Shown: piece after piece, positions 11,201-38,200 of the stretch
Position numbering within the stretch: the first letter of the stretch is position 1
How the letters are laid out: every line of letters begins with the position of its first letter
Origin: Nemertoderma westbladi
Lineage: Eukaryota; Animalia; Xenacoelomorpha
Direction of reading: 5' to 3'
DNA length: 64,000 bases
Assembly: GCA_032718475.1 (NCBI GenBank)
Contig: JAUCBJ010009066.1
Location: forward strand, 17,389-81,388
Notes under the pieces: generated by a model
Databases searched by the model: none
What the model saw: only the letters and a program-made list of their open reading frames with translations
Told to the model about the DNA's origin: nothing
Made by a program: the position numbers and the translations under genes

Positions 11201-14200
11201 CAGTAAGTAGAGCCAAATCAGTAAGATAGAGCCAAATCAGTTTGTAGAGCCAAATCAGTAAGATAGAGCCAAATCAGTAAGATAGAGCCAAATCAGTAAT
11301 ATAGAGCCAAATCAGTAAGATAGAGCCAAATCAGTAAGGTAGAGCCAAATCAGTAAGATAGAGCCAAATCAGTAAGATAGAGCCAAATCAGTAAGATAGA
11401 GCCAAATCAGTAAGATAGAGCCAAATCAGTAAGATAGAGCCAAATCAGTAAGATAGAGCCAAATCAGTTTGTAGAGCCAAATCAGTTGTAGAACCAAATC
11501 AGTTTGTAGAGCCAAATCAGTAAGTAGAGCTAAATCAGTTGTAGAACCAAATCAGTTTGTAGAGCCAAATCAGTAAGTAGAGCTAAATCAGTAATATAGA
11601 GCCAAATCAGTTTGTAGAGCTAAATCAGTAATATAGAGCCAAATCAGTAAGTAGAGCTAAATCAGTTGTAGAGCCAAATCAGTAAGTAGAGCTAAATCAG
11701 TTTGTAGAGCCAAATCAGTAAGTAGAGCCAAATCCGTATGTAGAGCCAAATCAGTAAGTAGAGCTAAATCAGTTGTAGAGCCAAATCAGTAAGTAGAGCC
11801 AAATCAGTAAGATAGAGCCAAATCAGTTTGTAGAGCCAAATCAGTAAGTAGAACCAAATCAGTTTGTAGAGCCAAATCAGTTTGTAGAGCCAAATCAGTG
11901 TAGAGCCAAATCAATAGGTAAAGCCAAATCAGTAAGGTAGAGCCAAATCAGTAAGATAGAGCCAAATCTGTACCTAGAGCCAAATCAGTATGTAGAGCCA
12001 AATCAGTTTGTAGAGCCAAATCTGTACCTAGAGCCAAATCAGTATGTAGAGCCAAATCAGTATGTAGAGCTAAATCAGTAATATAGAGCCAAATCAGTTT
12101 GTAGAGCTAAATCAGTAATATAGAGCCAAATCAGTTTGTAGAGCCAAATCAGTAAGTAGAGCTAAATCAGTTGTAGAGCCAAATCAGTAAGTAGAGCCAA
12201 ATCAGTAAGATAGAGCCAAATCAGTTTGTAGAGCCAAATCAGTAAGTAGAGCCAAATCAGTAACGTAGAGCTAAATCAGTACGTAGAGCCAAATCAGTTT
12301 GTAGAGCCAAATCAGTGTAGAGCCAAATCAATAGGTAAAGCCAAATCAGTAAGGTAGAGCCAAATCAGTAAGATAGAGCCAAATCTGTACCTATAGCCAA
12401 ATCAGTATGTAGAGCCAAATCAGTTTGTAGAGCCAAATCTGTACCTAGAGCCAAATCAGTATGTAGAGCCAAATCAGTATGTAGAGCCAAATCAGTAAGT
12501 AGAGCCAAATCAGTAACGTAGAGCCAAATCAGTATGTAGAGTCAAATCAGTATGTAGAGCCAAATCAGTACGTAGAGCCAAATCAGTTTGTAGAGCCAAA
12601 TCAATAGGTAAAGCCAAATCAGTAAGGTAGAGCCAAATCAGTAAGATAGAGCCAAATCAGTAAGATAGAGCCAAATCAGTAAGATAGAGCCAAATCAGTA
12701 AGATAGAGCCAAATCAGTAAGATAGAGCCAAATCAGTAAGATAGAGCCAAATCAGTAAGATAGAGCCAAATCAGTAAGATAGAGCCAAATCAGTAAGATA
12801 GAGCCAAATCAGTTTGTAGAGCCAAATCAGTAAGATAGAGCCAAATCAGTAACGTAGAGCTAAATCAGTATGTGGAGCCAAATGAGTATGTAGAGCCAAA
12901 TCAGTACGTAGAGCCAAATCAGTTTGTAGAGCCAAATCAGTAATGTAGGGCAAATAATGAAACAACTCACCATGGCGTCGTCATATTTAAACCATTGCCC
13001 CTTCCCGTAGACCGTTGCTATGCCAACATAGTGCCCGGAATGGGGACTGGATCCGTGATGAAGAATAGCGCCAACTAGCGTATAATTGTGGCGCTGCAAA
13101 TTAAATAAACATTATAGACAGAGGAAGTCAATAAATGTAATCATAGTGAAAGCGAAACACATTAACCACAACCCATGTATCAATAAAGTCAACTAATATA
13201 TAACGACTAGTGTTAACTCTAACCCTCTGTTAACTAGTGTTAACTAAAACTTACAACTGTAACCATTTACTTTATCACTCATTTATTATTACTTTTGACG
13301 GTGTTTATTATTTATTACTTTATTATTAAGTTGAATGATTATCCATTGAACGAACTGCATAGTAAAATAATTTCAAAATCATTTCTAAATCTAAAATTAC
13401 AAGATTCTAATTTACCCGATTAGGTAAATTAGTTTTGTACTGATATAGTTATGTAACGGCCTGTTTACACGTGGGAACTTCTAGAGCAACTTTCTCGGCA
13501 ACTTGTAGAGCAACCCAGGTTGCCGATCAAGTTGCTCCGTGTAAACACGCAAAAAAGTTGCCGTAAAAGTTGCTCAACTTTTACGGCAACTTGAAGGAAT
13601 TTGCGTTGGCGAATTAGAGAGGGATAATTAGATTAAATTATCAAAAACTAGATAGTAGGCAAAATGACCCACTATTTTACAGTTAAACTAGCCAAGTTGC
13701 TCTAAAAGTTGCCGGCCAAAAGTTGCTGGTAAAGTTGCCACGTGTAAACAGCTATTAAATTAAGCTGCTCCAAAAAAAGTTGCTAGTTGCTGAGAAAGTT
13801 GCTCTAAAAGTGGCCACGTGCATGTAAACAGGCCTTAATGGACATACCTAAAGGAAGGCGGTAAGCAAACAAGGCCTAACAGTTTGTTCTAGAACATATT
13901 TTCCAAAAGACTATTGAAAAACTTAACAATTTACTCACGTCTTGGTAGTGGGTATTAACTGTTGTAAATGGACCGATGTTCTTAGATACAGATGTTCTTG
14001 GATAATATGTTATATTCCATTGCCAGAGCTACCACATCACCTTGTTTGCTATGAGCTTAGAGTGTGCGTTTAGTGTCTTTTTACATTTCAACAACTTGGT
14101 TCTTCTTTCTTCTCTGTCTTCTGTTCCAGTAGCCAATTTATCGACCCCAGTCTGGTGAACCACTGGGGGACGCGGTCCTTGTTGACACGGGCGACGACCG

Positions 14201-17200
14201 AGCCGGTATTTCTCCAGGAGGGTTCTCATACTCATATCTTTCAGTTGCGGGAGTAAACCGCTTGTGGTCGCAACTCCTACAAGCGTCTTCGCAGTAGGTC
14301 GCCGTTGGTTGATTACCTTCCGCCGACCTTGTCAGCATGTCTATAGCCATTGGTTGCTTACCTTCCGTCTATCCATGGCCTACAGCCCTGCTGCCGACTG
14401 TAGGGGTCCCTTTGTTACACCCTGAACCAAGTGTGTCTCCTGGGTTAGGTTACCTAACACTAGAGGAAAATTCAGTATAGACAGAGTGGCGTGGGTGCAT
14501 TTCTATTGCAGATTCATTCATGTGACTCAAGCCTTTGCTTTCAATGGTGCCCTAGGCACTGTAGCCCTATCAATGAATTATTTAGTTGACGGGACTTACA
14601 AACGCACTCTTGAATAAGTCTTGATCAACTAAATGATGAATCGGCTATACTGGCGCGGATCGGGGTGCCCTACTGGGCTGACAGCTACTTACAGGTAGTA
14701 CCACATTACTGCCATAGTGGGAGCAGAATCTGGGTACTCTGAACTGACTTGTCTCGTTGTCTCCTCTGGTCGTCAACTTGGAATTAACTGTTGTAAATGA
14801 TAGTAGCAATGTGTTGGCAAGCTGTGTTTTTCGAGGTGTTTTTGTTTATTATACATTTATTATGGGAACGGCTCTAGGGGTCTCTCGAAAGAAAAATATA
14901 TTTTACCAATTGTGAAAATAAAAGATAAGTTATTTAAGGTAAAACAAACTTATCATTCGTGGTTAAGACCCCTCTAACCTTTCCCATAATAACTGTTGTA
15001 AATGGACTGCTTTACTCACCAGGGTATTAACTGTTGTAAATGGACCGATATCTTTACTCACCTGGGTATTAACTGTTGTAAATGGACCGATATCTTTACT
15101 CACCTGGGTATTATATAACTGTTGTAAATGGACCGATATCTTTACTCACCCGGGTATTAACTGTTGTAAATGGACCGATATCTTTACTCACCTGGGTATT
15201 AACTGTTGTAAATGGACCGATATCTTTACTCACCTGGGTATTAACTGTTGTAAATGGACCGATATCTTTACTCACCTGGGTATTATATAACTGTTGTAAA
15301 TGGACCGATATCTTTACTCACCCGGGTATTAACTGTTGTAAATGGACCGATATCTTTACTCACCTGGGTATTATATAACTGTTGTAAATGGACCGATATC
15401 TTTACTCACCCGGGTATTAACTGTTGTAAATGGACCGATATCTTTACTCACCCGGGTATTAACTGTTGTAAATGGACCAATATCTTTACTCACCCGGGTA
15501 TTAACTGTTGTAAATGGACCGATATCTTTATTCACCTGGGTATTATATAACTGTTGTAAATGGACCGATATCTTTACTCACCCGGGTATTAACTGTTGTA
15601 AATGGACCGATATCTTTACTCACCCGGGTATTAACTGTTGTAAATGGACCGATATCTTTACTCACCCGGGTATTAACTGTTGTAAATGGACCAATATCTT
15701 TACTCACCCGGGTATTAACTGTTGTAAATGGACCGATATCTTTATTCACCTGGGTATTATATAACTGTTGTAAATGGACCGATATCTTTACTCACCCGGG
15801 TATTAACTGTTGTAAATGGACCGATATCTCTACTCACCTGGGTCTTAACTGTTGTAAATGGACCGATATCTTTACTCACCTGGGTATTAACTGTTGTAAA
15901 TGGACCGATATCTTTACTCACCTGGGTATTATATTAACTGTTGTAAATGGACCGATATCTTTATTCACCTGGGTATTATATAACTGTTGTAAATGGACCG
16001 ATATCTTTACTCACCTGGGTATTATATAACTGTTGTAAATGGACCGATATCTTTACTCACCCGGGTATTAACTGTTGTAAATGGACCGATATCTTTACTC
16101 ACCTGGGTCTTAACTGTTGTAAATGGACCGATATCTTTACTCACCTGGGTATTAACTGTTGTAAATGGACTGATATCTTTACTCACCTGGGTATTATATA
16201 ACTGTTGTAAATGGACCGATATCTTTACTCACCCGGGTATTAACTGTTGTAAATGGACCGATATCTTTACTCACCCGGGTATTAACTGTTGTAAATGGAC
16301 CAATATCTTTACTCACCCGGGTATTAACTGTTGTAAATGGACCGATATCTTTATTCACCTGGGTATTATATAACTGTTGTAAATGGACCGATATCTTTAC
16401 TCACCCGGGTATTAACTGTTGTAAATGGACCGATATCTTTACTCACCTGGGTCTTAACTGTTGTAAATGGACCGATATCTTTACTCACCTGGGTATTAAC
16501 TGTTGTAAATGGACCGATATCTTTACTCACCTGGGTATTATATTAACTGTTGTAAATGGACCGATATCTTTACTCACCTGGGTCTTAACTGTTGTAAATG
16601 GACCGATATCTTTACTCACCTGGGTATTAACTGTTGTAAATGGACCGATATCTTTACTCACCTGGGTATTATATTAACTGTTGTAAATGGACCGATATCT
16701 TTATTCACCTGGGTATTATATAACTGTTGTAAATGGACCGATATCTTTACTCACCTGGGTATTATATAACTGTTGTAAATGGACCGATATCTTTACTCAC
16801 CCGGGTATTAACTGTTGTAAATGGACCGATATCTTTACTCACCTGGGTCTTAACTGTTGTAAATGGACCGATATCTTTACTCACCTGGGTATTAACTGTT
16901 GTAAATGGACTGATATCTTTACTCACCTGGGTATTATATAACTGTTGTAAATGGACCGATATCTTTACTCACCCGGGTATTAACTGTTGTAAATGGACCG
17001 ATATCTTTACTCACCCGGGTATTAACTGTTGTAAATGGACCAATATCTTTACTCACCCGGGTATTAACTGTTGTAAATGGACCGATATCTTTATTCACCT
17101 GGGTATTATATAACTGTTGTAAATGGACCGATATCTTTACTCACCCGGGTATTAACTGTTGTAAATGGACCGATATCTTTACTCACCTGGGTCTTAACTG

Positions 17201-20200
17201 TTGTAAATGGACCGATATCTTTACTCACCTGGGTATTAACTGTTGTAAATGGACCGATATCTTTACTCACCTGGGTATTATATTAACTGTTGTAAATGGA
17301 CCGATATCTTTATTCACCTGGGTATTATATAACTGTTGTAAATGGACCGATATCTTTACTCACCTGGGTATTATATAACTGTTGTAAATGGACCGATATC
17401 TTTACTCACCCGGGTATTAACTGTTGTAAATGGACCGATATCTTTACTCACCTGGGTCTTAACTGTTGTAAATGGACCGATATCTTTACTCACCTGGGTA
17501 TTAACTGTTGTAAATGGACTGATATCTTTACTCACCTGGGTATTATATAACTGTTGTAAATGGACCGATATCTTTACTCACCTGGGTATTAATTGTTGTA
17601 AATGGACCGATATCTTTACTCACCCGGGTATTAACTGTTGTAAATGGACCGATATCTTTACTCACCCGGGTATTAACTGTTGTAAATGGACCGATATCTT
17701 TATTCACCTGGGTATTATATAACTGTTGTAAATGGACCGATATCTTTACTCACCCGGGTATTAACTGTTGTAAATGGACCGATATCTTTACTCACCTGGG
17801 TCTTAACTGTTGTAAATGGACCGATATCTTTACTCACCTGGGTATTAACTGTTGTAAATGGACCGATATCTTTACTCACCTGGGTATTATATTAACTGTT
17901 GTAAATGGACCGATATCTTTATTCACCTGGGTATTATATAACTGTTGTAAATGGACCGATATCTTTACTCACCCGGGTATTAACTGTTGTAAATGGACCG
18001 ATATCTTTACTCACCTGGGTATTAACTGTTGTAAATGGACCGACATCTTTACTCACCTGGGTATTAACTGTTGTAAATGGACCGATATCTTTACTCACCC
18101 GGGTATTAACTGTTGTAAATGGACCGATATCTTTACTCACCTGGGTATTAACTGTTGTAAATGGACCGATATCTTTACTCACCCGGGTATTAACTGTTGT
18201 AAATGGACCGATATCTTTACTCACCTGGGTATTAACTGTTGTAAATGGACCGATATCTTTACTCACCTGGGTATTAACTGTTGTAAATGGACCGATATCT
18301 TTATTCACCTGGGTATTATATAACTGTTGTAAATGGACCGATATCTTTACTCACCTGGGTATTAACTGTTGTAAATGGACCGATATCTTTACTCACCTGG
18401 GTATTAACTGTTGTAAATGGACCGATATCTTTACTCACCTGGGTATTAACTGTTGAAATGGACCGATATCTTTATTCGCCTGGGTATTATATAACTGTTG
18501 TAAATGGACCGATATCTTTACTCACCTGGGTATTAACTGTTGTAAATGGACCGATATCTTTACTCACCTGGGTATTAACTGTTGTAAATGGACCGATATC
18601 TTTATTCACCTGGGTATTATATAACTGTTGTAAATGGACCGATATCTTTACTCACCTGGGTATTAACTGTTGTAAATGGACCGATATCTTTACTCACCTG
18701 GGTATTAACTGTTGTAAATGGACCGATATCTTTACTCACCTGGGTATTAACTGTTGAAATGGACCGATATCTTTATTCACCTGGGTATTATATAACTGTT
18801 GTAAATGGACCGATATCTTTACTCACCTGGGTATTAACTGTTGTAAATGGACCGATATCTTTACTCACCTGGGTATTAACTGTTGTAAATGGACCGATAT
18901 CTTTATTCACCTGGGTATTATATAACTGTTGTAAATGGACCGATATCTTTACTCACCTGGGTATTAACTGTTGTAAATGGACCGATATCTTTACTCACCT
19001 GGGTATTAACTGTTGTAAATGGACCGATATCTTTACTCACCTGGGTATTAACAGTTGTAAATGGACCGATATCTTTACTCACCTGGGTATTAACTGTTGT
19101 AAATGGACCGATATCTTTACTCACCTGGGTATTAACAGTTGTAAATGGACCGATATCTTTACTCACCTGGGTATTAACTGTTGTAAATGGACCGATATCT
19201 TTACTCACCTGGGTATTAACTGTTGTAAATGGACCGATATCTTTATTCACCTGGGTATTATATAACTGTTGTAAATGGACCGATATCTTTACTCACCTGG
19301 GTATTAACTGTTGTAAATGGACCGATATCTTTACTCACCTGGGTATTAACTGTTTTAAATGGACCGATATCTTTACTCACCAGGGTATTAACTGTTGTAA
19401 ATGGACCGATATCTTTACTCACCAGGGTATTAACTGTTGTAAATGGACCGATATCTTTACTCACCTGGGTATTAACTGTTGTAAATGGACCGATATATTT
19501 ACTCACCAGGGTATTAACTGTTGTAAATGGACCGATATCTTTATTCACCTGGGTATTATATAACTCTTTAACTGTTGTAAATGGACCGATATCTTTACTC
19601 ACCTGGGTATTAACTGTTGTAAATGGACCGATATCTTTACTCACCTGGGTATTAACTGTTGTAAATGGACCGATATCTTTACTCACCTGGGTATTAACTG
19701 TTGTAAATTGACCGATATCTTTACTCACCCGGGTATTAACTGTTGTAAATGGACCGATATCTTTACTCACCTGGGTATTAACTGTTGTAAATGGACCGAT
19801 ATCTTTATTCACCTGGGTATTATATAACTGTTGTAAATGGACCGATATCTTTACTCACCTGGGTATTAACTGTTGTAAATGGACCGATATCTTTACTCAC
19901 CTGGGTATTAACTGTTGCAAATGGACCGATATCTTTACTCACCTGGGTATAACTGTTGTAAATGGACCGATATCTTTACTCACCTGGGTATTAACTGTTG
20001 CAAATGGACCGATATATTTACTCACCTGGGTATTAACTGTTGTAAATGGACCGATATCTTTACTCACCCGGGTATTAACTGTTGTAAATGGACCGATATC
20101 TTTACTCACCTGGGTATTAACTGTTGTAAATTGACCGATATCTTTACTCACCCGGGTATTAACTGTTGTAAATGGACCGATATCTTTACTCACCTGGGTA

Positions 20201-23200
20201 TTAACTGTTGTAAATGGACCGATATCTTTATTCACCTGGGTATTAACTGTTGTAAATGGACCGATATCTTTACTCACCTGGGTATTAACTGTTGTAAATG
20301 GACCGATATCTTTACTCACCCGGGTATTAACTGTTGTAAATGGACCGATATCTTTACTCACCTGGGTATTAACTGTTGTAAATGGACCGATATCTTTATT
20401 CACCTGGGTATTATATAACTGTTGTAAATGGACCGATATCTTTACTCACCTGGGTATTAACTGTTGTAAATGGACCGATATCTTTACTCACCTGGGTATT
20501 AACTGTTGCAAATGGACCGATATCTTTACTCACCTGGGTATAACTGTTGTAAATGGACCGATATCTTTACTCACCTGGGTATTAACTGTTGTAAATGGAC
20601 CGATATATTTACTCACCTGGGTATTAACTGTTGTAAATGGACCGATATCTTTACTCACCCGGGTATTAACTGTTGTAAATGGACCGATATCTTTACTCAC
20701 CTGGGTATTAACTGTTGTAAATTGACCGATATCTTTACTCACCCGGGTATTAACTGTTGTAAATGGACCGATATCTTTACTCACCTGGGTATTAACTGTT
20801 GTAAATGGACCGATATCTTTATTCACCTGGGTATTAACTGTTGTAAATGGACCGATATCTTTACTCACCTGGGTATTAACTGTTGTAAATGGACCGATAT
20901 CTTTACTCACCCGGGTATTAACTGTTGTAAATGGACCGATATCTTTACTCACCAGGGTATTAACTGTTGAAAATGGACCGATATCTTTACTCACCCGGCT
21001 ATTAACTGTTGTAAATGGACCGATATCTTTACTCACCTGGGTATTAACTGTTGTAAATGGACCGATATCTTTACTCACCTGGGTATTAACTGTTGTAAAT
21101 GGACCGATATCTTTACTCACCTGGGTATTAACTGTTGTAAATGGACCGATATCTTTACTCACCTGGGTATTAACTGTTGTAAATGGACCGATATCTTTAT
21201 TCACCTGGGTATTAACTGTTGTAAATGGACCGATATCTTTACTCACCTGGGTATTAACTGTTGTAAATTGACCGATATCTTTACTCACCCGGGTATTAAC
21301 TGTTGTAAATGGACCGATATCTTTACTCACCTGGGTATTAACTGTTGTAAATGGACCGATATCTTTACTCACCTGGGTATTAACTGTTGTAAATGGACCG
21401 ATATCTTTACTCACCTGGGTATTAACTGTTGAAAATGGACCGATATCTTTATTCACCTGGGTATTAACTGTTGTAAATGGACCGATATATTTACTCACCA
21501 GGGTATTAACTGTTGTAAATGGACCGATATTTTTATTCACCTGGGTATTATATAACTGTTGTAAATGGACCGATATCTTTACTCACCTGGGTATTAACTG
21601 TTGTAAATGGACCGATATCTTTACTCACCTGGGTATTAACTGTTGTAAATGGACCGATATCTTTATTCACCTGGGTATTATATAACTGTTGTAAATGGAC
21701 CGATATCTTTATTCACCTGGGTATTAACTGTTGTAAATGGACCGATATCTTTACTCACCTGGGTATTAACTGTTGTAAATTGACCGATATCTTTACTCAC
21801 CCGGGTATTAACTGTTGTAAATGGACCGATATATTTACTCACCAGGGTATTAACTGTTGTAAATGGACCGATATCTTTATTCACCTGGGTATTATATAAC
21901 TGTTGTAAATGGACCGATATCTTTACTCACCTGGGTATTAACTGTTGTAAATGGACCGATATATTTACTCACCAGGGTATTAACTGTTGTAAATGGACCG
22001 ATATCTTTATTCACCTGGGTATTATATAACTGTTGTAAATGGACCGATATCTTTACTCACCTGGGTATTAACTGTTGTAAATGGACCGATATCTTTACTC
22101 ACCTGGGTATTAACTGTTGTAAATGGACCGATATCTTTACTCACCTGGGTATTAACTGTTGTAAATTGACCGATATCTTTACTCACCCGGGTATTAACTG
22201 TTGTAAATGGACCGATATCTTTACTCACCTGGGTATTAACTGTTGTAAATGGACCGATATCTTTATTCACCTGGGTATTATATAACTGTTGTAAATGGAC
22301 CGATATCTTTACTCACCTGGGTATTAACTGTTGTAAATGGACCGATATCTTTACTCACCTGGGTATTAACTGTTGTAAATGGACCGATATCTTTACTCAC
22401 CTGGGTATTAACTGTTGTAAATGGACCGATATCTTTACTCACCTTGGTATTAACTGTTGTAAATGGACTGCTTTACTCACCTGGGTATTAACTGTTGTAA
22501 ATGGACCGATATCTTTACTCACCTGGGTCTTAACTGTTGTAAATGGACCGATATCTTTACTCACCTGGGTATTAACTGTTGTAAATGGACTGATATCTTT
22601 ACTCACCTGGGTATTATATAACTGTTGTAAATGGACCGATATCTTTACTCACCCGGGTATTAACTGTTGTAAATGGACCGATATCTTTACTCACCCGGGT
22701 ATTAACTGTTGTAAATGGACCAATATCTTTACTCACCCGGGTATTAACTGTTGTAAATGGACCGATATCTTTATTCACCTGGGTATTATATAACTGTTGT
22801 AAATGGACCGATATCTTTACTCACCCGGGTATTAACTGTTGTAAATGGACCGATATCTTTACTCACCTGGGTCTTAACTGTTGTAAATGGACCGATATCT
22901 TTACTCACCTGGGTATTAACTGTTGTAAATGGACCGATATCTTTACTCACCTGGGTATTATATTAACTGTTGTAAATGGACCGATATCTTTACTCACCTG
23001 GGTCTTAACTGTTGTAAATGGACCGATATCTTTACTCACCTGGGTATTAACTGTTGTAAATGGACCGATATCTTTACTCACCTGGGTATTATATTAACTG
23101 TTGTAAATGGACCGATATCTTTATTCACCTGGGTATTATATAACTGTTGTAAATGGACCGATATCTTTACTCACCTGGGTATTATATAACTGTTGTAAAT

Positions 23201-26200
23201 GGACCGATATCTTTACTCACCCGGGTATTAACTGTTGTAAATGGACCGATATCTTTACTCACCTGGGTCTTAACTGTTGTAAATGGACCGATATCTTTAC
23301 TCACCTGGGTATTAACTGTTGTAAATGGACTGATATCTTTACTCACCTGGGTATTATATAACTGTTGTAAATGGACCGATATCTTTACTCACCCGGGTAT
23401 TAACTGTTGTAAATGGACCGATATCTTTACTCACCCGGGTATTAACTGTTGTAAATGGACCAATATCTTTACTCACCCGGGTATTAACTGTTGTAAATGG
23501 ACCGATATCTTTATTCACCTGGGTATTATATAACTGTTGTAAATGGACCGATATCTTTACTCACCCGGGTATTAACTGTTGTAAATGGACCGATATCTTT
23601 ACTCACCTGGGTCTTAACTGTTGTAAATGGACCGATATCTTTACTCACCTGGGTATTAACTGTTGTAAATGGACCGATATCTTTACTCACCTGGGTATTA
23701 TATTAACTGTTGTAAATGGACCGATATCTTTATTCACCTGGGTATTATATAACTGTTGTAAATGGACCGATATCTTTACTCACCTGGGTATTATATAACT
23801 GTTGTAAATGGACCGATATCTTTACTCACCCGGGTATTAACTGTTGTAAATGGACCGATATCTTTACTCACCTGGGTCTTAACTGTTGTAAATGGACCGA
23901 TATCTTTACTCACCTGGGTATTAACTGTTGTAAATGGACTGATATCTTTACTCACCTGGGTATTATATAACTGTTGTAAATGGACCGATATCTTTACTCA
24001 CCTGGGTATTAATTGTTGTAAATGGACCGATATCTTTACTCACCCGGGTATTAACTGTTGTAAATGGACCGATATCTTTACTCACCCGGGTATTAACTGT
24101 TGTAAATGGACCGATATCTTTATTCACCTGGGTATTATATAACTGTTGTAAATGGACCGATATCTTTACTCACCCGGGTATTAACTGTTGTAAATGGACC
24201 GATATCTTTACTCAACTGGGTCTTAACTGTTGTAAATGGACCGATATCTTTACTCACCTGGGTATTAACTGTTGTAAATGGACCGATATCTTTACTCACC
24301 TGGGTATTATATTAACTGTTGTAAATGGACCGATATCTTTATTCACCTGGGTATTATATAACTGTTGTAAATGGACCGATATCTTTACTCACCCGGGTAT
24401 TAACTGTTGTAAATGGACCGATATCTTTACTCACCTGGGTATTAACTGTTGTAAATGGACCGACATCTTTACTCACCTGGGTATTAACTGTTGTAAATGG
24501 ACCGATATCTTTACTCACCCGGGTATTAACTGTTGTAAATGGACCGATATCTTTACTCACCTGGGTATTAACTGTTGTAAATGGACCGATATCTTTACTC
24601 ACCCGGGTATTAACTGTTGTAAATGGACCGATATCTTTACTCACCTGGGTATTAACTGTTGTAAATGGACCGATATCTTTACTCACCTGGGTATTAACTG
24701 TTGTAAATGGACCGATATCTTTATTCACCTGGGTATTATATAACTGTTGTAAATGGACCGATATCTTTACTCACCTGGGTATTAACTGTTGTAAATGGAC
24801 CGATATCTTTACTCACCTGGGTATTAACTGTTGTAAATGGACCGATATCTTTACTCACCTGGGTATTAACTGTTGAAATGGACCGATATCTTTATTCGCC
24901 TGGGTATTATATAACTGTTGTAAATGGACCGATATCTTTACTCACCTGGGTATTAACTGTTGTAAATGGACAGATATCTTTACTCACCTGGGTATTAACT
25001 GTTGTAAATGGACCGATATCTTTATTCACCTGGGTATTATATAACTGTTGTAAATGGACCGATATCTTTACTCACCTGGGTATTAACTGTTGTAAATGGA
25101 CCGATATCTTTACTCACCTGGGTATTAACTGTTGTAAATGGACCGATATCTTTACTCACCTGGGTATTAACTGTTGAAATGGACCGATATCTTTATTCAC
25201 CTGGGTATTATATAACTGTTGTAAATGGACCGATATCTTTACTCACCTGGGTATTAACTGTTGTAAATGGACCGATATCTTTACTCACCTGGGTATTAAC
25301 TGTTGTAAATGGACCGATATCTTTATTCACCTGGGTATTATATAACTGTTGTAAATGGACCGATATCTTTACTCACCTGGGTATTAACTGTTGTAAATTG
25401 ACCGATATCTTTACTCACCTGGGTATTAACTGTTGTAAATGGACCGATATCTTTACTCACCTGGGTATTAACAGTTGTAAATGGACCGATATCTTTACTC
25501 ACCTGGGTATTAACTGTTGTAAATGGACCGATATCTTTACTCACCTGGGTATTAACAGTTGTAAATGGACCGATATCTTTACTCACCTGGGTATTAACTG
25601 TTGTAAATGGACCGATATCTTTACTCACCTGGGTATTAACTGTTGTAAATGGACCGATATCTTTATTCACCTGGGTATTATATAACTGTTGTAAATGGAC
25701 CGATATCTTTACTCACCTGGGTATTAACTGTTGTAAATGGACCGATATCTTTACTCACCTGGGTATTAACTGTTTTAAATGGACCGATATCTTTACTCAC
25801 CAGGGTATTAACTGTTGTAAATGGACCGATATCTTTACTCACCAGGGTATTAACTGTTGTAAATGGACCGATATCTTTACTCACCTGGGTATTAACTGTT
25901 GTAAATGGACCGATATATTTACTCACCAGGGTATTAACTGTTGTAAATGGACCGATATCTTTATTCACCTGGGTATTATATAACTCTTTAACTGTTGTAA
26001 ATGGACCGATATCTTTACTCACCTGGGTATTAACTGTTGTAAATGGACCGATATCTTTACTCACCTGGGTATTAACTGTTGTAAATGGACCGATATCTTT
26101 ACTCACCTGGGTATTAACTGTTGTAAATTGACCGATATCTTTACTCACCCGGGTATTAACTGTTGTAAATGGACCGATATCTTTACTCACCTGGGTATTA

Positions 26201-29200
26201 ACTGTTGTAAATGGACCGATATCTTTATTCACCTGGGTATTATATAACTGTTGTAAATGGACCGATATCTTTACTCACCTGGGTATTAACTGTTGTAAAT
26301 GGACCGATATCTTTACTCACCTGGGTATTAACTGTTGCAAATGGACCGATATCTTTACTCACCTGGGTATAACTGTTGTAAATGGACCGATATCTTTACT
26401 CACCTGGGTATTAACTGTTGCAAATGGACCGATATATTTACTCACCTGGGTATTAACTGTTGTAAATGGACCGATATCTTTACTCACCCGGGTATTAACT
26501 GTTGTAAATGGACCGATATCTTTACTCACCTGGGTATTAACTGTTGTAAATTGACCGATATCTTTACTCACCCGGGTATTAACTGTTGTAAATGGACCGA
26601 TATCTTTACTCACCTGGGTATTAACTGTTGTAAATGGACCGATATCTTTATTCACCTGGGTATTAACTGTTGTAAATGGACCGATATCTTTACTCACCTG
26701 GGTATTAACTGTTGTAAATGGACCGATATCTTTACTCACCCGGGTATTAACTGTTGTAAATGGACCGATATCTTTACTCACCTGGGTATTAACTGTTGTA
26801 AATGGACCGATATCTTTATTCACCTGGGTATTATATAACTGTTGTAAATGGACCGATATCTTTACTCACCTGGGTATTAACTGTTGTAAATGGACCGATA
26901 TCTTTACTCACCTGGGTATTAACTGTTGCAAATGGACCGATATCTTTACTCACCTGGGTATAACTGTTGTAAATGGACCGATATCTTTACTCACCTGGGT
27001 ATTAACTGTTGTAAATGGACCGATATATTTACTCACCTGGGTATTAACTGTTGTAAATGGACCGATATCTTTACTCACCCGGGTATTAACTGTTGTAAAT
27101 GGACCGATATCTTTACTCACCTGGGTATTAACTGTTGTAAATTGACCGATATCTTTACTCACCCGGGTATTAACTGTTGTAAATGGACCGATATCTTTAC
27201 TCACCTGGGTATTAACTGTTGTAAATGGACCGATATCTTTATTCACCTGGGTATTAACTGTTGTAAATGGACCGATATCTTTACTCACCTGGGTATTAAC
27301 TGTTGTAAATGGACCGATATCTTTACTCACCCGGGTATTAACTGTTGTAAATGGACCGATATCTTTACTCACCAGGGTATTAACTGTTGAAAATGGACCG
27401 ATATCTTTACTCACCCGGGTATTAACTGTTGTAAATGGACCGATATCTTTACTCACCTGGGTATTAACTGTTGTAAATGGACCGATATCTTTACTCACCT
27501 GGGTATTAACTGTTGTAAATGGACCGATATCTTTACTCACCTGGGTATTAACTGTTGTAAATGGACCGATATCTTTACTCACCTGGGTATTAACTGTTGT
27601 AAATGGACCGATATCTTTATTCACCTGGGTATTAACTGTTGTAAATGGACCGATATCTTTACTCACCTGGGTATTAACTGTTGTAAATTGACCGATATCT
27701 TTACTCACCCGGGTATTAACTGTTGTAAATGGACCGATATATTTACTCACCAGGGTATTAACTGTTGTAAATGGACTGATATCTTTATTCACCTGGGTAT
27801 TATATAACTGTTGTAAATGGACCGATATCTTTACTCACCTGGGTATTAACTGTTGTAAATGGACCGATATCTTTACTCACCTGGGTATTAACTGTTGTAA
27901 ATGGACCGATATCTTTACTCACCTGGGTATTAACTGTTGTAAATTGACCGATATCTTTACTCACCCGGGTATTAACTGTTGTAAATGGACCGGTATCTTT
28001 ACTCACCTGGGTATTAACTGTTGTAAATGGACCGATATCTTTATTCACCTGGGTATTATATAACTGTTGTAAATGGACCGATATCTTTACTCACCTGGGT
28101 ATTAACTGTTGTAAATGGACCGATATCTTTACTCACCTGGGTATTAACTGTTGTAAATGGACCGATATCTTTACTCACCTGGGTATTAACTGTTGTAAAT
28201 GGACCGATATCTTTACTCACCTGGGTATTAACTGTTGTAAATGGACCGATATATTTACTCACCTGGGTATTAACTGTTGTAAATGGACCGATATCTTTAT
28301 TCACCTGGGTATTATATAACTGTTGTAAATGGACCGATATCTTTACTCACCTGGGTGTTAACTGTTGTAAATGGACCGATATCTTTACTCACCTGGGTAT
28401 TAACTGTTGTAAATGGACCGATATCTTTACTCACCTGGGTATTAACTGTTGTAAATGGACCGATATCTTTACTCACCTGGGTATTAACTGTTGTAAATGG
28501 ACCGATATCTTTACTCACCTGGGTATTAACTGTTGTAAATGGATCGATATCTTTACTCACCTGGGTATTAACTGTTGTAAATGGACCGATATCTTTACTC
28601 ACCTGGGTATTACCCCTATTAACTGTTGTAAATGGACCGATATCTTTACTCACCTGGGTATTAACTGTTGTAAATGGACCGATATCTTTACTCACCTGGG
28701 TATTAACTGTTGTAAATGGACCGATATCTTTACTCACCTGGGTATTAACTGTTGTAAATGGACCGATATCTTTACTCACCTGGGTATTAACTGTTGTAAA
28801 TGGACCGATATCTTTACTCACCTGGGTATTAACTGTTGTAAATGGACCGATATCTTTACTCACCTGGGTATTAACTGTTGTAAATGGACCGATATCTTTA
28901 CTCACCTGGGTATTAACTGTTGAAAATGGACCGATATCTTTATTCACCTGGGTATTANNNNNNNNNNNNNNNNNNNNNNNNNNNNNNNNNNNNNNNNNNN
29001 NNNNNNNNNNNNNNNNNNNNNNNNNNNNNNNNNNNNNNNNNNNNNNNNNNNNNNNNNTGCTTTACTCACCTGGGTATTAACTGTTGTAAATGGACCGATA
29101 TCTTTACTCACCTGGGTATTAACTGTTGTAAATGGACCGATATCTTTACTCACCTGGGTATTAACTGTTGTAAATGGACCGATATCTTTACTCACCTGGG

Positions 29201-32200
29201 TATTAACTGTTGTAAATGGACCGATATCTTTACTCACCTGGGTATTAACTGTTGTAAATGGACCTGCTTTACTCACCTGGGTATTAACTGTTGTAAATGG
29301 ACCGATATCTTTACTCACCTGGGTATTAACTGTTGTAAATGGACTAGCTTTACTCACCTGGGTATTAACTGTTGTAAATGGACCAATATCTTTACTCACC
29401 TGGGTATTAACTGTTGTAAATGGACCGATATCTTTACTCACCTGGGTATTAACTGTTGTAAATGGACGTATCTTTACTCACCTGGGTATTAACTGTTGTA
29501 AATGGACCGATATCTTTACTCACCTGGGTATTAACTGTTGTAAATGGACCGATATCTTTACTCACCTGGGTATTAACTGTTGTAAATGGACCGATATCTT
29601 TACTCACCTGGGTATTAACTGTTGTAAATGGACCGATATCTTTACTCACCTGGGTATTAACTGTTGTAAATGGACTGCTTTACTCACCTGGGTATTAACT
29701 GTTGTAAATGGACCGATATCTTTACTCACCTGGGTATTAACTGTTGTAAATGGACCGATATCTTTACTCACCTGGGTATTAACTGTTGTAAATGGACCGA
29801 TATCTTTACTCACCTGGGTATTAACTGTTGTAAATGGACCGATATCTTTACTCACCTGGGTATTAACTGTTGTAAATGGACCGATATCTTTACTCACCTG
29901 GGTATTAACTGTTGTAAATGGACTGCTTTACTCACCTGGGTATTAACTGTTGTAAATGGACCGATATCTTTACTCACCTGGGTATTAACTGTTGTAAATG
30001 GACCGATATCTTTACTCACCTGGGTATTAACTGTTGTAAATGGACCGATATCTTTACTCACCTGGGTATTAACTGTTGTAAATGGACCGATATCTTTACT
30101 CACCAGGGTATTAACTGTTGTAAATGGACCGATATCTTTACTCACCTGGGTATTAACTGTTGTAAATGGACCGATATCTTTACTCACCTGGGTATTAACT
30201 GTTGTAAATGGACCGATATCTTTACTCACCTGGGTATTAACTGTTGTAAATGGACCGATATCTTTACTCACCTGGGTATTAACTGTTGTAAATGGACCGA
30301 TATCTTTACTCACCTGGGTATTAACTGTTGTAAATGGACCGATATCTTTACTCACCTGGGTATTAACTGTTGTAAATGGACCGATATCTTTACTCACCTG
30401 GGTATTAACTGTTGTAAATGGACCGATATCTTTACTCACCTGGGTATTAACTGTTGTAAATGGACCGATATCTTTACTCACCTGGGTATTAACTGTTGTA
30501 AATGGACGTGCTTTACTCACCTGGGTATTAACTGTTGTAAATGGACCGTATCTTTACTCACCTGGGTATTAACTGTTGTAAATGGACTGCTTTACTCACC
30601 TGGGTATTAACTGTTGTAAATGGACCGATATCTTTACTCACCTGGGTATTAACTGTTGTAAATGGACCGATATCTTTACTCACCTGGGTATTAACTGTTG
30701 TAAATGGACCGATATCTTTACTCACCTGGGTATTAACTGTTGTAAATGGACCGATATCTTTACTCACCTGGGTATTAACTGTTGTAAATGGACTGCTTTA
30801 CTCACCTGGGTATTAACTGTTGTAAATGGACCGATATCTTTACTCACCTGGGTATTAACTGTTGTAAATGGACGTAGCTTTACTCACCTGGGTATTAACT
30901 GTTGTAAATGGACCAATATCTTTACTCACCTGGGTATTAACTGTTGTAAATGGACCGATATCTTTACTCACCTGGGTATTAACTGTTGTAAATGGACGAT
31001 GCTTTACTCACCTGGGTATTAACTGTTGTAAATGGACTGCTTTACTCACCTGGGTATTAACTGTTGTAAATGGACCGATATCTTTACTCACCTGGGTATT
31101 AACTGTTGTAAATGGACTGCTTTACTCACCTGGGTATTAACTGTTGTAAATGGACCGATATCTTTACTCACCTGGGTATTAACTGTTGTAAATGGACCGA
31201 TATCTTTACTCACCTGGGTATTAACTGTTGTAAATGGACTGCTTTACTCACCTGGGTATTAACTGTTGTAAATGGACCGATATCTTTACTCACCTGGGTA
31301 TTAACTGTTGTAAATGGACTGCTTTACTCACCTGGGTATTAACTGTTGTAAATGGACCAATATCTTTACTCACCTGGGTATTAACTGTTGTAAATGGACC
31401 GATATCTTTACTCACCTGGGTATTAACTGTTGTAAATGGACTACTTTACTCACCTGGGTATTAACTGTTGTAAATGGACCGATATCTTTACTCACCTGGG
31501 TATTAACTGTTGTAAATGGACCGATATCTTTACTCACCTGGGTATTAACTGTTGAAAATGGACCGATATCTTTACTCACCTGGGTATTAACTGTTGTAAA
31601 TGGACCGATATCTTTACTCACCTGGGTATTAACTGTTGTAAATGGACTGCTTTACTCACCTGGGTATTAACTGTTGTAAATGGACCGATATCTTTACTCA
31701 CCTGGGTATTAACTGTTGTAAATGGACCGATATCTTTACTCACCTGGGTATTAACTGTTGTAAATGGACCGATATCTTTACTCACCTGGGTATTAACTGT
31801 TGTAAATGGACCGATATCTTTACTCACCTGGGTATTAACTGTTGTAAATGGACCGATATCTTTACTCACCTTGGTATTAACTGTTGTAAATGGACGTGCT
31901 TTACTCACCTGGGTATTAACTGTTGTAAATGGACCGATATCTTTACTCACCTGGGTATTAACTGTTGTAAATGGACCGATATCTTTACTCACCTGGGTAT
32001 TAACTGTTGAAAATGGACCGATATCTTTACTCACCTGGGTATTAACTGTTGTAAATGGACCGATATCTTTACTCACCTGGGTATTAACTGTTGTAAATGG
32101 ACCGATATCTTTACTCACCTGGGTATTAACTGTTGAAAATGGACCGATATCTTTACTCACCTGGGTATTAACTGTTGTAAATGGACCGATATCTTTACTC

Positions 32201-35200
32201 ACCTGGGTATTAACTGTTGTAAATGGACCGATATCTTTACTCACCTGGGTATTAACTGTTGTAAATGGACCGATATCTTTACTCACCTGGGTATTAACTG
32301 TTGAAAATGGACCGATATCTTTACTCACCTGGGTATTAACTGTTGTAAATGGACCGATATCTTTACTCACCTGGGTATTAACTGTTGTAAATGGACCGAT
32401 ATCTTTACTCACCTGGGTATTAACTGTTGTAAATGGACCGATATCTTTACTCACCTGGGTATTAACTGTTGTAAATGGACCGATATCTTTACTCACCTGG
32501 GTATTAACTGTTGTAAATGGACCGATATCTTTACTCACCTGGGTATTAACTGTTGTAAATGGACCGATATCTTTACTCACCTGGGTATTAACTGTTGAAA
32601 ATGGACCGATATCTTTACTCACCTGGGTATTAACTGTTGTAAATGGACCGATATCTTTACTCACCTTGGTATTAACTGTTGTAAATGGACTGCTTTACTC
32701 ACCTGGGTATTAACTGTTGTAAATGGACCGATATCTTTACTCACCCGGGTATTAACTGTTGTAAATGGACCGATATCTTTACTCACCTGGGTATTAACTG
32801 TTGTAAATGGACCGATATCTTTACTCACCTGGGTATTAACTGTTGTAAATGGACCGATATCTTTACTCACCTGGGTATTAACTGTTGTAAATGGACTGCT
32901 TTACTCACCTGGGTATTAACTGTTGTAAATGGACCGATATCTTTACTCACCCGGGTATTAACTGTTGTAAATGGACCGATATCTTTACTCACCTGGGTAT
33001 TAACTGTTGTAAATGGACCGATATCTTTACTCACCTGGGTATTAACTGTTGTAAATGGACCGATATCTTTACTCACCTGGGTATTAACTGTTGTAAATGG
33101 ACCGATATCTTTACTCACCTGGGTATTAACTGTTGTAAATGGACCGATATCTTTACTCACCTGGGTATTAACTGTTGTAAATGGACCGATAGCTTTACTC
33201 ACCTCCACCTGGTATTAACTGTTGTAAATGGACCGATATCTTTACTCACCTGGGTATTAACTGTTGTAAATGGACCGATATCTTTACTCACCTGGGTATT
33301 AACTGTTGTAAATGGACCGATATCTTTACTCACCTGGGTATTAACTGTTGTAAATGGACCGATATCTTTACTGCTCACCTGGGTATTAACTGTTGTAAAT
33401 GGACCGATATCTTTACTCACCTGGGTATTAACTGTTGTAAATGGACCGATATCTTTATTCACCTGGGTATTATATAACTGTTGTAAATGGACCGATATCT
33501 TTACTCACCTGGGTATTAACTGTTGTAAATGGACCGATATCTTTACTCACCCGGGTATTAACTGTTGTAAATGGACCGATATCTTTACTCACCTGGGTAT
33601 TAACTGTTGTAAATGGACTACTTTACTCACCTGGGTATTAACTGTTGTAAATGGACCGATATCTTTACTCACCTGGGTATTAACTGTTGTAAATGGACCG
33701 ATATCTTTACTCACCTGGGTATTAACTGTTGTAAATGGACCGATATCTTTACTCACCTGGGTATTAACTGTTGTAAATGGACCGATATCTTTACTCACCT
33801 GGGTATTAACTGTTGTAAATGGACCGTGCTTTACTCACCTGGGTATTAACTGTTGTAAATGGACCGATATCTTTACTCACCTGGGTATTAACTGTTGTAA
33901 ATGGACCGATATCTTTACTCACCTGGGTATTAACTGTTGTAAATGGACCGATATCTTTACTCACCTGGGTATTAACTGTTGTAAATGGACCGATATCTTT
34001 ACTCACCTGGGTATTAACTGTTGTAAATGGACCGATATCTTTACTCACCTGGGTATTAACTGTTGTAAATGGACGTGCTTTACTCACCTGGGTATTAACT
34101 GTTGTAAATGGACCGATATCTTTACTCACCTGGGTATTAACTGTTGTAAATGGACCGATATCTTTACTCACCTGGGTATTAACTGTTGAAAATGGACCGA
34201 TATCTTTACTCACCTGGGTATTAACTGTTGTAAATGGACCGATATCTTTACTCACCTGGGTATTAACTGTTGTAAATGGACCGATATCTTTACTCACCTG
34301 GGTATTAACTGTTGAAAATGGACCGATATCTTTACTCACCTGGGTATTAACTGTTGTAAATGGACCGATATCTTTACTCACCTGGGTATTAACTGTTGTA
34401 AATGGACCGATATCTTTACTCACCTGGGTATTAACTGTTGTAAATGGACCGATATCTTTACTCACCTGGGTATTAACTGTTGTAAATGGACCGATATCTT
34501 TACTCACCTGGGTATTAACTGTTGTAAATGGACCGATATCTTTACTCACCTGGGTATTAACTGTTGTAAATGGACCGATATCTTTACTCACCTGGGTATT
34601 AACTGTTGTAAATGGACCGATATCTTTACTCACCTGGGTATTAACTGTTGTAAATGGACCGATATCTTTACTCACCTGGGTATTAACTGTTGAAAATGGA
34701 CCGATATCTTTACTCACCTGGGTATTAACTGTTGTAAATGGACCGATATCTTTACTCACCTGGGTATTAACTGTTGAAAATGGACCGATATCTTTACTCA
34801 CCTGGGTATTAACTGTTGTAAATGGACCGATATCTTTACTCACCTTGGTATTAACTGTTGTAAATGGACTGCTTTACTCACCTGGGTATTAACTGTTGTA
34901 AATGGACCGATATCTTTACTCACCCGGGTATTAACTGTTGTAAATGGACCGATATCTTTACTCACCTGGGTATTAACTGTTGTAAATGGACCGATATCTT
35001 TACTCACCTGGGTATTAACTGTTGTAAATGGACCGATATCTTTACTCACCTGGGTATTAACTGTTGTAAATGGACGTAGCTTTACTCACCTGGGTATTAA
35101 CTGTTGTAAATGGACCGATATCTTTACTCACCCGGGTATTAACTGTTGTAAATGGACCGATATCTTTACTCACCTGGGTATTAACTGTTGTAAATGGACC

Positions 35201-38200
35201 GATATCTTTACTCACCTGGGTATTAACTGTTGTAAATGGACCGATAGCTTTACTCACCTGGGTATTAACTGTTGTAAATAGACCGATATCTTTACTCACC
35301 TGGGTTTAACTGTTGTAAATGGACCGATATCTTTACTCACCTGGGTATTAACTGTTGTAAATGGACCGATAGCTTTACTCACCTCCACCTGGTATTAACT
35401 GTTGTAAATGGACCGATATCTTTACTCACCTGGGTATTAACTGTTGTAAATGGACCGATATCTTTACTCACCTGGGTATTAACTGTTGTAAATGGACCGA
35501 TATCTTTACTCACCTGGGTATTAACTGTTGTAAATGGACCGATATATTTACTGACTCACCTGGGTATTAACTGTTGTAAATGGACCGATATCTTTACTCA
35601 CCTGGGTATTAACTGTAGTAAATGGACCGATATCTTTATTCACCCGGGTATTATATAACTGTTGTAAATGGACCGATATCTTTACTCACCTGGGTATTAA
35701 CTGTTGTAAATGGACCGATATCTTTATTCACCCGGGTATTATATAACTGTTGTAAATGTACCGATATCTTTACTCACCCGGGTATTATATACTGTTGTAA
35801 ATGGACCGATATCTTTACTCACCCGGGTATTATATAACTGTTGTAAATGGACCGATATCTTTACTCACCCGGGTATTAACTGTTGTAAATGGACCGATAT
35901 CTTTACTCACCTGGGTATTAACTGTTGTAAATGGACCGATATCTTTACTCACCTGGGTATTAACTGTTGTAAATGGACCGATATCTTTACTCACCCGGGT
36001 ATTAACTGTTGTAAATGGACCGATATCTTTACTCACCTGGGTATTAACTGTTGTAAATGGACCGATATCTTTACTCACCCGGGTATTAACTGTTGTAAAT
36101 GGACCGATATCTTTACTCACCTGGGTATTAACTGTTGTAAATGGACCGATATCTTTACTCACCCGGGTATTAACTGTTGTAAATGGACCGATATCTTTAC
36201 TCACCTGGGTATTAACTGTTGTAAATGGACCGATATCTTTACTCACCCGGGTATTAACTGTTGTAAATGGACCGATATCTTTACTCACCTGGGTATTAAC
36301 TGTTGTAAATGGACCGATATCTTTACTCACCCGGGTATTAACTGTTGTAAATGGACCGATATCTTTACTCACCTGGGTATTAACTGTTGTAAATGGACCG
36401 ATATCTTTACTCACCTGGGTATTAACTGTTGTAAATGGACCGATATCTTTACTCACCCGGGTATTAACTGTTGTAAATGGACCGATATCTTTACTCACCT
36501 GGGTATTAACTGTTGTAAATGGACCGATATCTTTACTCACCTGGGTATTAACTGTTGTAAATGGACCGATATCTTTACTCACCTGGGTATTAACTGTTGT
36601 AAATGGACCGATATCTTTACTCACCTGGGTATTAACTGTTGTAAATGGACCGATATCTTTACTCACCCGGGTATTAACTGTTGTAAATGGACCGATATCT
36701 TTACTCACCTGGGTATTAACTGTTGAAAATGGACCGATATCTTTACTCACCTGGGTATTAACTGTTGTAAATGGACCGATATCTTTACTCACCCGGGTAT
36801 TAACTGTTGTAAATGGACCGATATCTTTACTCACCTGGGTATTAACTGTTGTAAATGGACCGATATCTTTACTCACCTGGGTATTAACTGTTGTAAATGG
36901 ACCGATATCTTTACTCACCTGGGTATTAACTGTTGTAAATGGACCGATATCTTTATTCACCTGGGTATTATATAACTGTTGTAAATGGACCGATATCTTT
37001 ACTCACCCGGGTATTAACTGTTGTAAATGGACCGATATCTTTACTCACCTGGGTATTAACTGTTGTAAATGGACCGATATCTTTACTCACCTGGGTATTA
37101 ACTGTTGTAAATGGACCGATATCTTTACTCACCTGGGTATTAACTGTTGTAAATGGACCGATAGGCCTATATTTACTCACCAGGGTATTAACTGTTGAAA
37201 ATGGACCGATATTGATATTTTCCAAATATTTAACTCTCCTGGTGTCTTTCCTAACGATTCCAGGGAAATTTGATTTAAACCTTTTTAAATGAAGGATTAA
37301 CACATTGGGCGGCTGGTGGATGAGCACTCGCTTAGTTGCGTTCACTTTATGGCGACATCTGCGTATAGATTAATAGCGAATAATTAATAATTATTCAAAT
37401 GATAAATTAAATTTAAAAAATTAAATAATACAATGATAGCGTATTGATAAAAACGAATAACTATATGTTAGTCTCGCACTTGTACAATTCAATAATTCAT
37501 TAGGGATGTTACCCCGAGGTATGTTTGTCACGCACCTGTACACTCGAGGTATGTTTGTCACGCACCTGTAACCCCGAGGTATGTTTGTCACGCACCTGTA
37601 CACTCGAGGTATGTTTGTCACGCACCTGTAACCCCGAGGTATGTTTGTCACGCACCTGTAACCCCGAGGTATGTTTGTCACGCACCTGTACATTAGAGGT
37701 ATGTTTGTCACGCACCTGTAACCCCGAGGTATGTTTGTCACGCACCTGTAAACTCGAGGTATGTTTATCACGCACCTGTACATTAGAGGTATGTTTATCA
37801 CGCACCAGTAACCCCCAGGTATGTTTGTCACGCACCTGTAACCCCGAGGTATGTTTGTCACGCACCTGTACATTAGAGGTATGTTTGTCACGCACCTGTA
37901 CATTAGAGGTATGTTTGTCACGCACCTGTAAACTCGAGGTATGTTTGTCACGCACATGTAACCCCGAGGTATGTTTGTCACGCACCTGTAACCCCGAGGT
38001 ATGTTTGTCACGCACCTGTAACCCCGAGGTATGTTTGTCACGCACCTGTACATTAGAGGTATGTTTGTCACGCACCTGTAAACTCGAGGTATGTTTGTCA
38101 CGCACATGTAACCCCGAGGTATGTTTGTCACACACCTGTAACCCCGAGGTATGTTTGTCACGCACCTGTACATTAGAGGTATGTTTGTCACGCACCTGTA

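Follow-up and report, generated by a model that had tools for sequence, protein, structure and literature searches.

Minisatellites whose unit contains a 5′ splice site are known from F7, CBS, 6-16, LMNB2 and PDGF, which share one architecture and in which the first donor or the first few donors are used. In intron 7 of human F7, the unit of a 37-bp VNTR spans the exon-intron boundary and repeats the donor downstream, the first donor is selected by 5′-to-3′ priority, and pseudo-sites mutated to CAG/gtgagt captured ~70-90% of splicing in minigenes (Borensztajn et al. 2006, PMC1557585). For the 31-bp VNTR of CBS, c.1444_1467+7(16_21) (PMC2630376), the use of two pseudo-donors together with the real one is summarized in PMC1557585. 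The "mirage" minisatellites of lancelet Adh3 and globin genes are tandem exon-intron boundaries, and normal splicing is maintained in the cases described (Ebner et al. 2010, PMC3087553). The first-donor rule was established on 5-12 weak repeats and partly yielded to CAG/gtgagt copies. Searches of open-access main texts showed no array in which a donor is repeated hundreds of times.

In the window (the whole stretch of 64,000 nucleotides that was analyzed), an array of 22 kb consists of tandem copies of one gene segment, the final 32 bases of exon 4 followed by the initial 10 bases of intron 4. It is likely a donor-spanning minisatellite of the kind found in human F7 and CBS and in the lancelet, grown into a runaway repeat. 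As in the F7 VNTR, the unit spans the exon-intron boundary. However, ~520 copies stand against 5-9 and 32 exon nucleotides against 4 (PMC1557585), and the F7 unit is not a multiple of three whereas the 42-nt unit is. Pseudo-sites in F7 do not differ from the real one, whereas most of those in the present array exceed it in strength and have the engineered sequence that was able to compete in the F7 minigenes. The CBS unit (PMC2630376) is likewise mostly exonic (24 + 7 nt versus 32 + 10 nt here), but it occurs in 16-21 copies and its 31 nt shift the frame, which the 42-nt unit keeps. With the lancelet mirages (PMC3087553), the array shares an invertebrate host, concerted evolution and end copies that escape homogenization; the globin cases shown there have 3-6 units, whereas satellite scale is reached here and two consecutive introns are affected. 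New are the size of the array, a likely later sweep of CAG, the unit of 14 open codons, a donor-seeded array in intron 3 and a stray copy. Nature has here put the choice of a single 5′ splice site to an extreme test, with ~360 CAG/gtgagt copies trailing a weaker real donor over 22 kb in a gene that appears intact. If the downstream donors are used, a satellite is turning into coding sequence; if they are not, the array belongs to a known class as an ordinary, though very large, case.

Host gene and array structure

The host is a minus-strand gene for a USP36-like deubiquitinase with seven exons, and the array lies in intron 4:

46591..47113, minus strand, coding part of exon 1 from the first in-frame ATG, with the Cys box
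42028..42244, minus strand, exon 2
41285..41491, minus strand, exon 3, matches USP structures
37181..37358, minus strand, exon 4 (178 nt), whose donor CTG/GTGAGT at 37180 is array copy 1
12971..13093, minus strand, exon 5, with the His box
2865..2997, minus strand, exon 6
1624..2234, minus strand, coding part of exon 7 up to the stop codon

The join of 37181 to 13093 is phase 0 and yields an open seven-exon frame with intact Cys, His and Asp boxes. The UCH domain (PF00443) was matched on four of the seven exons. USP36 was the best USP match for exons 2 and 4, and other USPs were the best for exons 3 and 5. Protein word searches with exons 4 and 5 gave no candidate spanning the exon 4-5 junction, and the search with exon 1 returned one distant fungal USP. 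A representative protein search retrieved 47 USPs at 28-53% identity, the host-gene protein itself being absent from it. Rfam gave 0 matches over the whole window.

The repeats of the gene and the irregularities of the intron 4 array are as follows:

14990..37212, minus strand, 42-nt array of the exon 4 end (32 nt) plus donor (10 nt), ~520 copies
28958..29057, no strand, assembly gap of 100 N inside the array
16300..27750, minus strand, two near-identical blocks of ~5 kb, 6420 nt apart (limits approximate), a recent or an assembly duplication
37507..41288, minus strand, second donor-seeded array in intron 3, 30-nt unit, 126 copies, built like the 42-nt array

For positions 14990-37212 a period of 42, 523.6 copies and 93% matches were determined, in agreement with the ~525 copies of the first-pass annotation. 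The boundary of exon 4 and intron 4 falls inside copy 1, and the donor is repeated head to tail at 520 junctions. The first-pass account of the unit, 32 exon 4 nucleotides joined to the intron start, is likewise correct, as 30 of the 32 nt at the end of exon 4 are identical to the consensus. The array covers 22 kb of an intron of ~24 kb. In the intron 3 array, 80 copies of the unit read ACAG/GTGCGTGA, and the frame stays open for 532 codons beyond exon 3. Further arrays of the gene are donor-free, among them a 10-kb array of 533 copies of 19 nt in intron 5.

Because of the 100-N gap and the near-identical ~5-kb block, the copy number is uncertain. The array could be much shorter than assembled, or it could cripple the gene, which would then be a mis-spliced or dying allele. 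The gap lies within the array, the units adjoining it are noisy, the ~5-kb block recurs at 99.8-100% identity, and three word searches and the representative search yielded no matching protein. However, ~370 copies remain after subtraction of one block, the variant sets differ between the two sides of the gap, and these sides link exons 4 and 5 in the right order and phase. With seven open exons and all three boxes preserved, and with absent database matches counting as weak evidence, we regard such a reading as very improbable.

Donor strength and variation among the copies

Among the 520 junctions, 363 read CAG/GTGAGT, 81 CGG/GTGAGT, 50 CAG/GTGAAT and 15 CTG/GTGAGT. The CAG copies form 9 Watson-Crick pairs with U1 (−13.8 kcal/mol) compared with 8 for the first donor (−10.8 kcal/mol), so that the earlier statement that they out-match the exon-proximal CTG site holds. 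An equally good donor was present in 0.5% of 20,000 shuffled units. Variants were counted in 511 of 516 units, after removal of one unit holding the gap and four of double length. The commonest sit at donor positions and damage the donor or its AG: −2 A>G (83 units), +5 G>A (49) and −2 A>T (15), −2 being the most variable position. Perfect donors make up 180 of 209 junctions in the proximal part of the array versus 183 of 311 in the distal part.

These data bear on the suggestion of the first-pass annotation that the array is a U1 sponge. On a selected U1 platform, dense donors would suppress premature cleavage at AGTAAA and AATAAA, letting the array grow, or would sequester U1. The sense strand of the array has 466 AGTAAA and 54 AATAAA overlapping donors, the +5 G>A variant converts a donor to AATAAA, the CAG sweep would have followed the founding of the array, and telescripting is a described phenomenon. 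However, AATAAA occurs at ~2.4 per kb, near the level in the unique intron DNA of the gene (11 in 6.2 kb), and donor-weakening variants have spread without hindrance. The possible alleles seen number 6 of 27 at donor positions versus 27 of 99 in the rest of the unit (p = 0.8), and conservation thus lends the sponge no support. Moreover, one nascent transcript per locus could take up little of a snRNP as abundant as U1. A selected platform is therefore given a very small probability.

In a recursive ratchet, each AG/GT junction would serve as acceptor and regenerated donor, and the 24-kb intron would be removed stepwise. AG/GT is kept at 419 junctions, and 417 YAG/GT were counted in the array, a feature shared with the recursive and dual-specificity sites of published descriptions (PMC10156609, PMC10809524), where AGGT sites in the tandem repeat of human UBC act as dual sites. 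TTAAT is placed as in the exon 5 acceptor. The likeness to the exon 4 acceptor proposed earlier is real for the last 8 nt of the unit, which agree with it at 7 positions, but the surrounding sequence lacks the context of an acceptor. At −40 to −4, the T content of the unit (0.27) is at background, falling at the 40th percentile among 651 YAG sites that served as background, compared with 0.38-0.59 (80th-99th percentile) for the six real acceptors. Three AGs fall in the same interval, where real acceptors have 0-1; the AG of the junction follows one of them at a distance of 9 nt. Measured against those descriptions (PMC10156609, PMC10809524), the array lacks a pyrimidine- or T-rich tract, has an AG close upstream and does not conserve the AG. 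No copy carries Y5+N0-4YAGGT, which is a human motif; only two of the six real acceptors have the human pyrimidine motif, indicating that acceptors in this organism are lenient. The AG is lost in about one-fifth of the copies, the CTG of the presumed founder form contains none, and the 10-kb array in intron 5 has no such sites. Within the array, no purifying selection on the recursive motif was seen. Because the units resemble background rather than acceptors and the commonest variants damage the donor or the AG, the recursive track put forward in the first-pass annotation is poorly supported. From its sequence, a recursive ratchet is unlikely, and we assign it only a marginal chance.

Reading frame and choice of donor

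The 42-nt unit consists of 14 open codons in the frame of exon 4, and therefore donors 1-5 give in-frame products in a loop that tolerates insertions. Among 517 donors, only these five are both in frame and stop-free:

37001..37132, minus strand, donors 2-5, with first intron bases 37132, 37090, 37048 and 37006, in frame and stop-free

Donors 2, 3, 4 and 5 would extend the protein by 16, 30, 44 and 58 residues, respectively. The spacing from LKRF to the His box is 47 residues with donor 1 and would be 63 with donor 2. Of 48 fetched proteins, the pattern was held by 22; in these relatives the spacing is 43-57, apart from a single domain at 77. The comparison favors donor 1, though only indirectly. 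The box 4-5 loop of USPs accepts insertions.

We consider it probable that the array is mostly a neutral repeat expansion, with the main splicing predicted at the first donor and likely leakage to the next few. Exon definition and 5′-to-3′ priority would favor donor 1. Donors 2-5 would add 16-58 residues to the loop that precedes the His box, where insertions are known to occur, and donors 6 onward would cause a premature stop and nonsense-mediated decay. The copies would be tolerated rather than needed. A silent decoy field with first-donor choice, also proposed in the first-pass annotation, is partly supported: it agrees with the known behavior of F7-type minisatellites and would give the best protein fit. 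Neutral expansion is further supported by the higher-order blocks, by the other, donor-free arrays that the gene has collected, by the CTG of both end copies and by donor positions that are no better conserved than the remainder of the unit. Against it, the units of both donor-seeded arrays are stop-free multiples of three, a hint of selection, with a chance of ~0.05-0.11 in an estimate that is circular for donor 3. A donor-strengthening change that likely swept the array also speaks against neutrality, as does the higher share of perfect donors in its proximal part. Against first-donor choice, donors 2-4 carry CAG/gtgagt, the form that competed in F7, although the first donor here is stronger than that of F7.

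Alternatively, in an in-frame donor ladder, donors 2-4 would take much of the splicing, part of the repeat would now be coding, the frame would be selected, and box 4-5 isoforms with the respective insertions would result. Donors 2-4 exceed donor 1 in U1 pairing and in predicted single-strandedness (0.26-0.36 versus 0.12), and the resulting exons of 226-310 nt have open frames. The capture of splicing by engineered pseudo-sites in F7 minigenes and the two pseudo-sites employed beyond the first in CBS and 6-16 point the same way. However, the His-box spacing would be longer than in 21 of 22 relatives, the first F7 site persisted, and frame was no predictor of site use there. Known arrays are often not multiples of three (31, 37 and 100 nt), and the reasoning fails in intron 3, whose donor sits inside a CxxC zinc motif. 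We therefore hold the ladder to be unlikely. A broader version, in which the repeat reached satellite size because it kept the frame, a single change then made the donor perfect in ~360 copies, the nearest of these outcompete donor 1 and add repeat peptides to the surface loop, and the U1-loaded array shields its poly(A) hexamers, appears quite unlikely. If it is true, selection on splicing would have shaped a satellite of splice signals that is now in the course of becoming coding sequence.

Origin and turnover of the array

Homogenization, block duplication and divergent ends are all present in the 42-nt array, as in tandem-repeat turnover. CTG is found at both end copies and goes together with T at +10 (6 of 14 versus 6 of 505, the copies not being independent). 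The founder unit would have had the form of the first donor, with CTG and T at +10. CAG likely arose after the duplication and then swept the array, and G at +10 would also have come later and spread. Unequal exchange may have duplicated blocks of the array. AATAT had been proposed as a plausible microhomology seed. It predicts a 40-nt unit, whose junction occurs 0 times, whereas the junction of the 42-nt form is present 11 times; the seed would thus have required a subsequent slip of 2 nt.

At the far end, the following remnants were located:

14853..14996, no strand, MITE-like element with 31-nt inverted ends (84% complementary), truncates the last array unit
14783..14799, minus strand, unit remnant, 17 nt exact
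13929..13977, minus strand, stray exon-end copy in which 28 nt match the unit exactly, followed by 11 others and a phase-0 donor

From the 17-nt remnant to the stray copy, a stretch of 790 nt holds no sequence repeated in the window and only short open reading frames. The stray copy likely marks where the duplication first ended on its far side, a portion that insertions would have severed from the array. Its donor at 13938 is weak (−7.4 kcal/mol) and lies 845 nt upstream of the exon 5 acceptor. It was rejected as an mRNA donor because exon 4 would then take in 23 kb containing stops. A 42-nt mini-exon was also rejected, as the sole acceptor there is AAG. The first-pass annotation did not mention that the unit has an open frame, that a stray copy exists (13977-13929) and that the intron 3 array is of the same build.

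The host gene and its intron-4 array

The array lies in a USP deubiquitinase gene on the minus strand, for which seven exons were modeled. All exon joins are GT-AG, and a single open frame of ~663 residues results.

47113-46591, minus strand: exon 1, coding part
42244-42028, minus strand: exon 2
41491-41285, minus strand: exon 3
37358-37181, minus strand: exon 4
13093-12971, minus strand: exon 5
2997-2865, minus strand: exon 6
2234-1624, minus strand: exon 7, coding part

A Pfam UCH match was obtained in four of the seven exons. The best solved structure was USP36 for exons 2 and 4, but not for exons 3 and 5; protein word searches and a representative protein search found no close relative. 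Upstream of exon 1, GC-rich, GCGCG-rich repeats at 47750-48330 appeared promoter-like by eye and may resemble E2F sites.

The intron-4 array (14990-37212) has a period of 42 nt and, as assembled, 523.6 copies with 520 donor-like junctions, in agreement with the ~525 copies of exon end plus donor noted in the first-pass annotation. Each unit joins the 32-nt end of exon 4 (30/32 identical) to 10 intron nt. CAG|GTGAGT was present at 363 of the 520 junctions, and its computed pairing energy with U1 was -13.8 kcal/mol versus -10.8 for the real first donor, CTG|GTGAGT at 37180, so that most copies are indeed the better match; the other donors of the gene ranged from -6.4 to -11.2 kcal/mol. Because the array contains a 100-N gap and a duplicated 5-kb block (99.8-100% identity), its true length may differ from the assembled one; ~370 copies remain if one block is removed. 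That the array is inflated or damaging was judged very unlikely.

Origin of the array

CTG occurs at the donor of both the first and the last copy, and within the array it was linked to the T at +10 of the first donor (6/14 versus 6/505, a significance inflated by the block duplication). The founder was therefore probably similar to the real donor, with no AG|GT; judging from the variants, CAG would be a later change that then spread. An AATAT microhomology seed, as proposed earlier, predicts a 40-nt unit, which was never seen, whereas the 42-nt form with T at +10 occurs 11 times. Any of three routes would yield the 42-nt unit: blunt joining, an overlap of 3 nt, or subsequent slippage by 2 nt.

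A MITE-like element (14853-14996) truncates the array in mid-unit. Beyond it lie a 17-nt unit remnant and then an isolated exon-end copy (13929-13977, minus strand); chance matching was excluded for both. This stray copy carries nine extra bases and has a weak donor of its own (position 13938, phase 0), with the acceptor following 845 nt downstream; it probably marks where the duplication originally ended on its far side. The ~800 nt between remnant and stray copy (13978-14782) showed no repeat within the window and only short ORFs. A second MITE-like element, with internal repeats, occupies 13459-13834 in the rest of intron 4.

Splicing, reading frame, and selection

Recursive splicing through the AG|GT junctions had also been proposed. 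Of the junctions, 419 carry AG|GT, AG|GT arrays in human UBC can act as dual sites (PMC10156609, PMC10809524), TTAAT is placed as in the exon-5 acceptor, and the last 8 nt of the unit agree with the exon-4 acceptor at 7, which bears out the noted resemblance to an acceptor of this gene. However, the T content at -40 to -4 was 0.27, which ranks at the 40th percentile among 651 background YAG sites, versus the 80th-99th for the six real acceptors, and this region holds three AGs in the unit versus 0-1 in real acceptors. The published human motif Y5+N0-4YAGGT was matched by no copy, but by only two of the six real acceptors as well. Recursion is very unlikely.

In the exon-4 frame the unit reads as 14 codons without a stop, and donors 1-5, counted outward from exon 4, give open products. 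The fifth unit, at 46 nt, runs into a stop, so that all later donors fail. The insertion would fall directly before the His-box strand, by our own assignment the box 4-5 loop, a flexible insertion site of USPs (Ye et al. 2009, as cited in another source). The LKRF-to-His spacing is 47 residues with donor 1 and would be 63 with donor 2; among the 22 of 48 fetched proteins holding this pattern it was 43-57, with one domain at 77.

Donor-repeating minisatellites of 5-25 copies are known from F7, CBS, 6-16, LMNB2, and PDGF; according to PMC1557585, splicing goes to the first donor or the first few donors, frame does not predict use, and engineered CAG/gtgagt copies in F7 captured ~70-90%. Major use of donors 2-4 is a live alternative, if a rather unlikely one. 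The CBS unit comprises 24 exon and 7 intron nt (PMC2630376), and the lancelet "mirages" leave splicing undisturbed (PMC3087553); PMC10078293 contributed nothing specific. No donor array of hundreds of copies was found in the open-access literature searched. The intron-4 array is real, known in kind, and extreme in size and copy strength. Most likely, and with somewhat better than even probability, it is a runaway repeat that the gene tolerates, with priority for the first donor and a margin of safety provided by the reading frame.

For variant counts, 511 of 516 units were aligned on a core that excludes the donor, the remaining 5 being dropped. Substitutions were most frequent at -2 (83 + 15 copies) and +5 (49 copies). 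Distinct alleles were not rarer at donor positions (6/27 versus 27/99 elsewhere, p=0.8). Against an absence of donor selection count the alteration of GT in just 3/520 junctions and the excess of perfect donors near the exon (180/209 versus 183/311 farther); this could be explained by history alone. Poly(A)-type hexamers overlap the unit donors (AGTAAA 466, AATAAA 54); +5 G>A converts AGTAAA to AATAAA, first at 36957 and mostly in the distal half. U1 protection against premature cleavage, as described in the literature, may help tolerance of the array. Selection for it is not supported, because unique introns have a similar density of AATAAA (11 in 6.2 kb). With donor alleles as varied as the rest of the unit, the suggested U1 sponge received no support from conservation, and a selected U1 platform is very unlikely.

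Other arrays of the gene and the window

Another array built like that of intron 4 lies in intron 3 (30-nt unit, 126 copies); in it, 80 copies read ACAG|GTGCGTGA, variants agree with the exon-3 end at 9/11 nt, and 48/120 donors are in frame and stop-free. Two open 3n units in introns 3 and 4 have a chance of ~0.05-0.11, a mere hint of selection on frame. The exon-3 donor sits within a CxxC motif, where insertions should be harmful. The intron-5 array (3124-12948, minus strand; 19-nt unit, 533 copies) begins 22 nt past the donor and contains none itself, so arrays arise in this gene whether or not splice signals are included. All three arrays begin at or near a donor; 148 (intron 3) and 126 (intron 5) repeat-free nt precede the acceptor. 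In intron 1, 488-nt inverted ends (98% identical) flank a 10-nt repeat of 144 copies (42719-46440), a foldback-like transposon.

Upstream of the gene and outside the assigned exons, a 21-nt repeat (53450-53615, minus strand) has 8 copies, 7 of which carry GTAAGTAT (10/11 U1 matches). Tandem arrays of 32-nt and 30-nt units lie at 56019-57139 and 3-326. Dispersed repeat pairs of 79-98% identity (51407-51841/63646-64000, 61647-62103/62784-63242, and 54414-54681/62097-62356) are probably transposon fragments, and by eye a stretch near 49600-50500 resembles a LINE 3' end.
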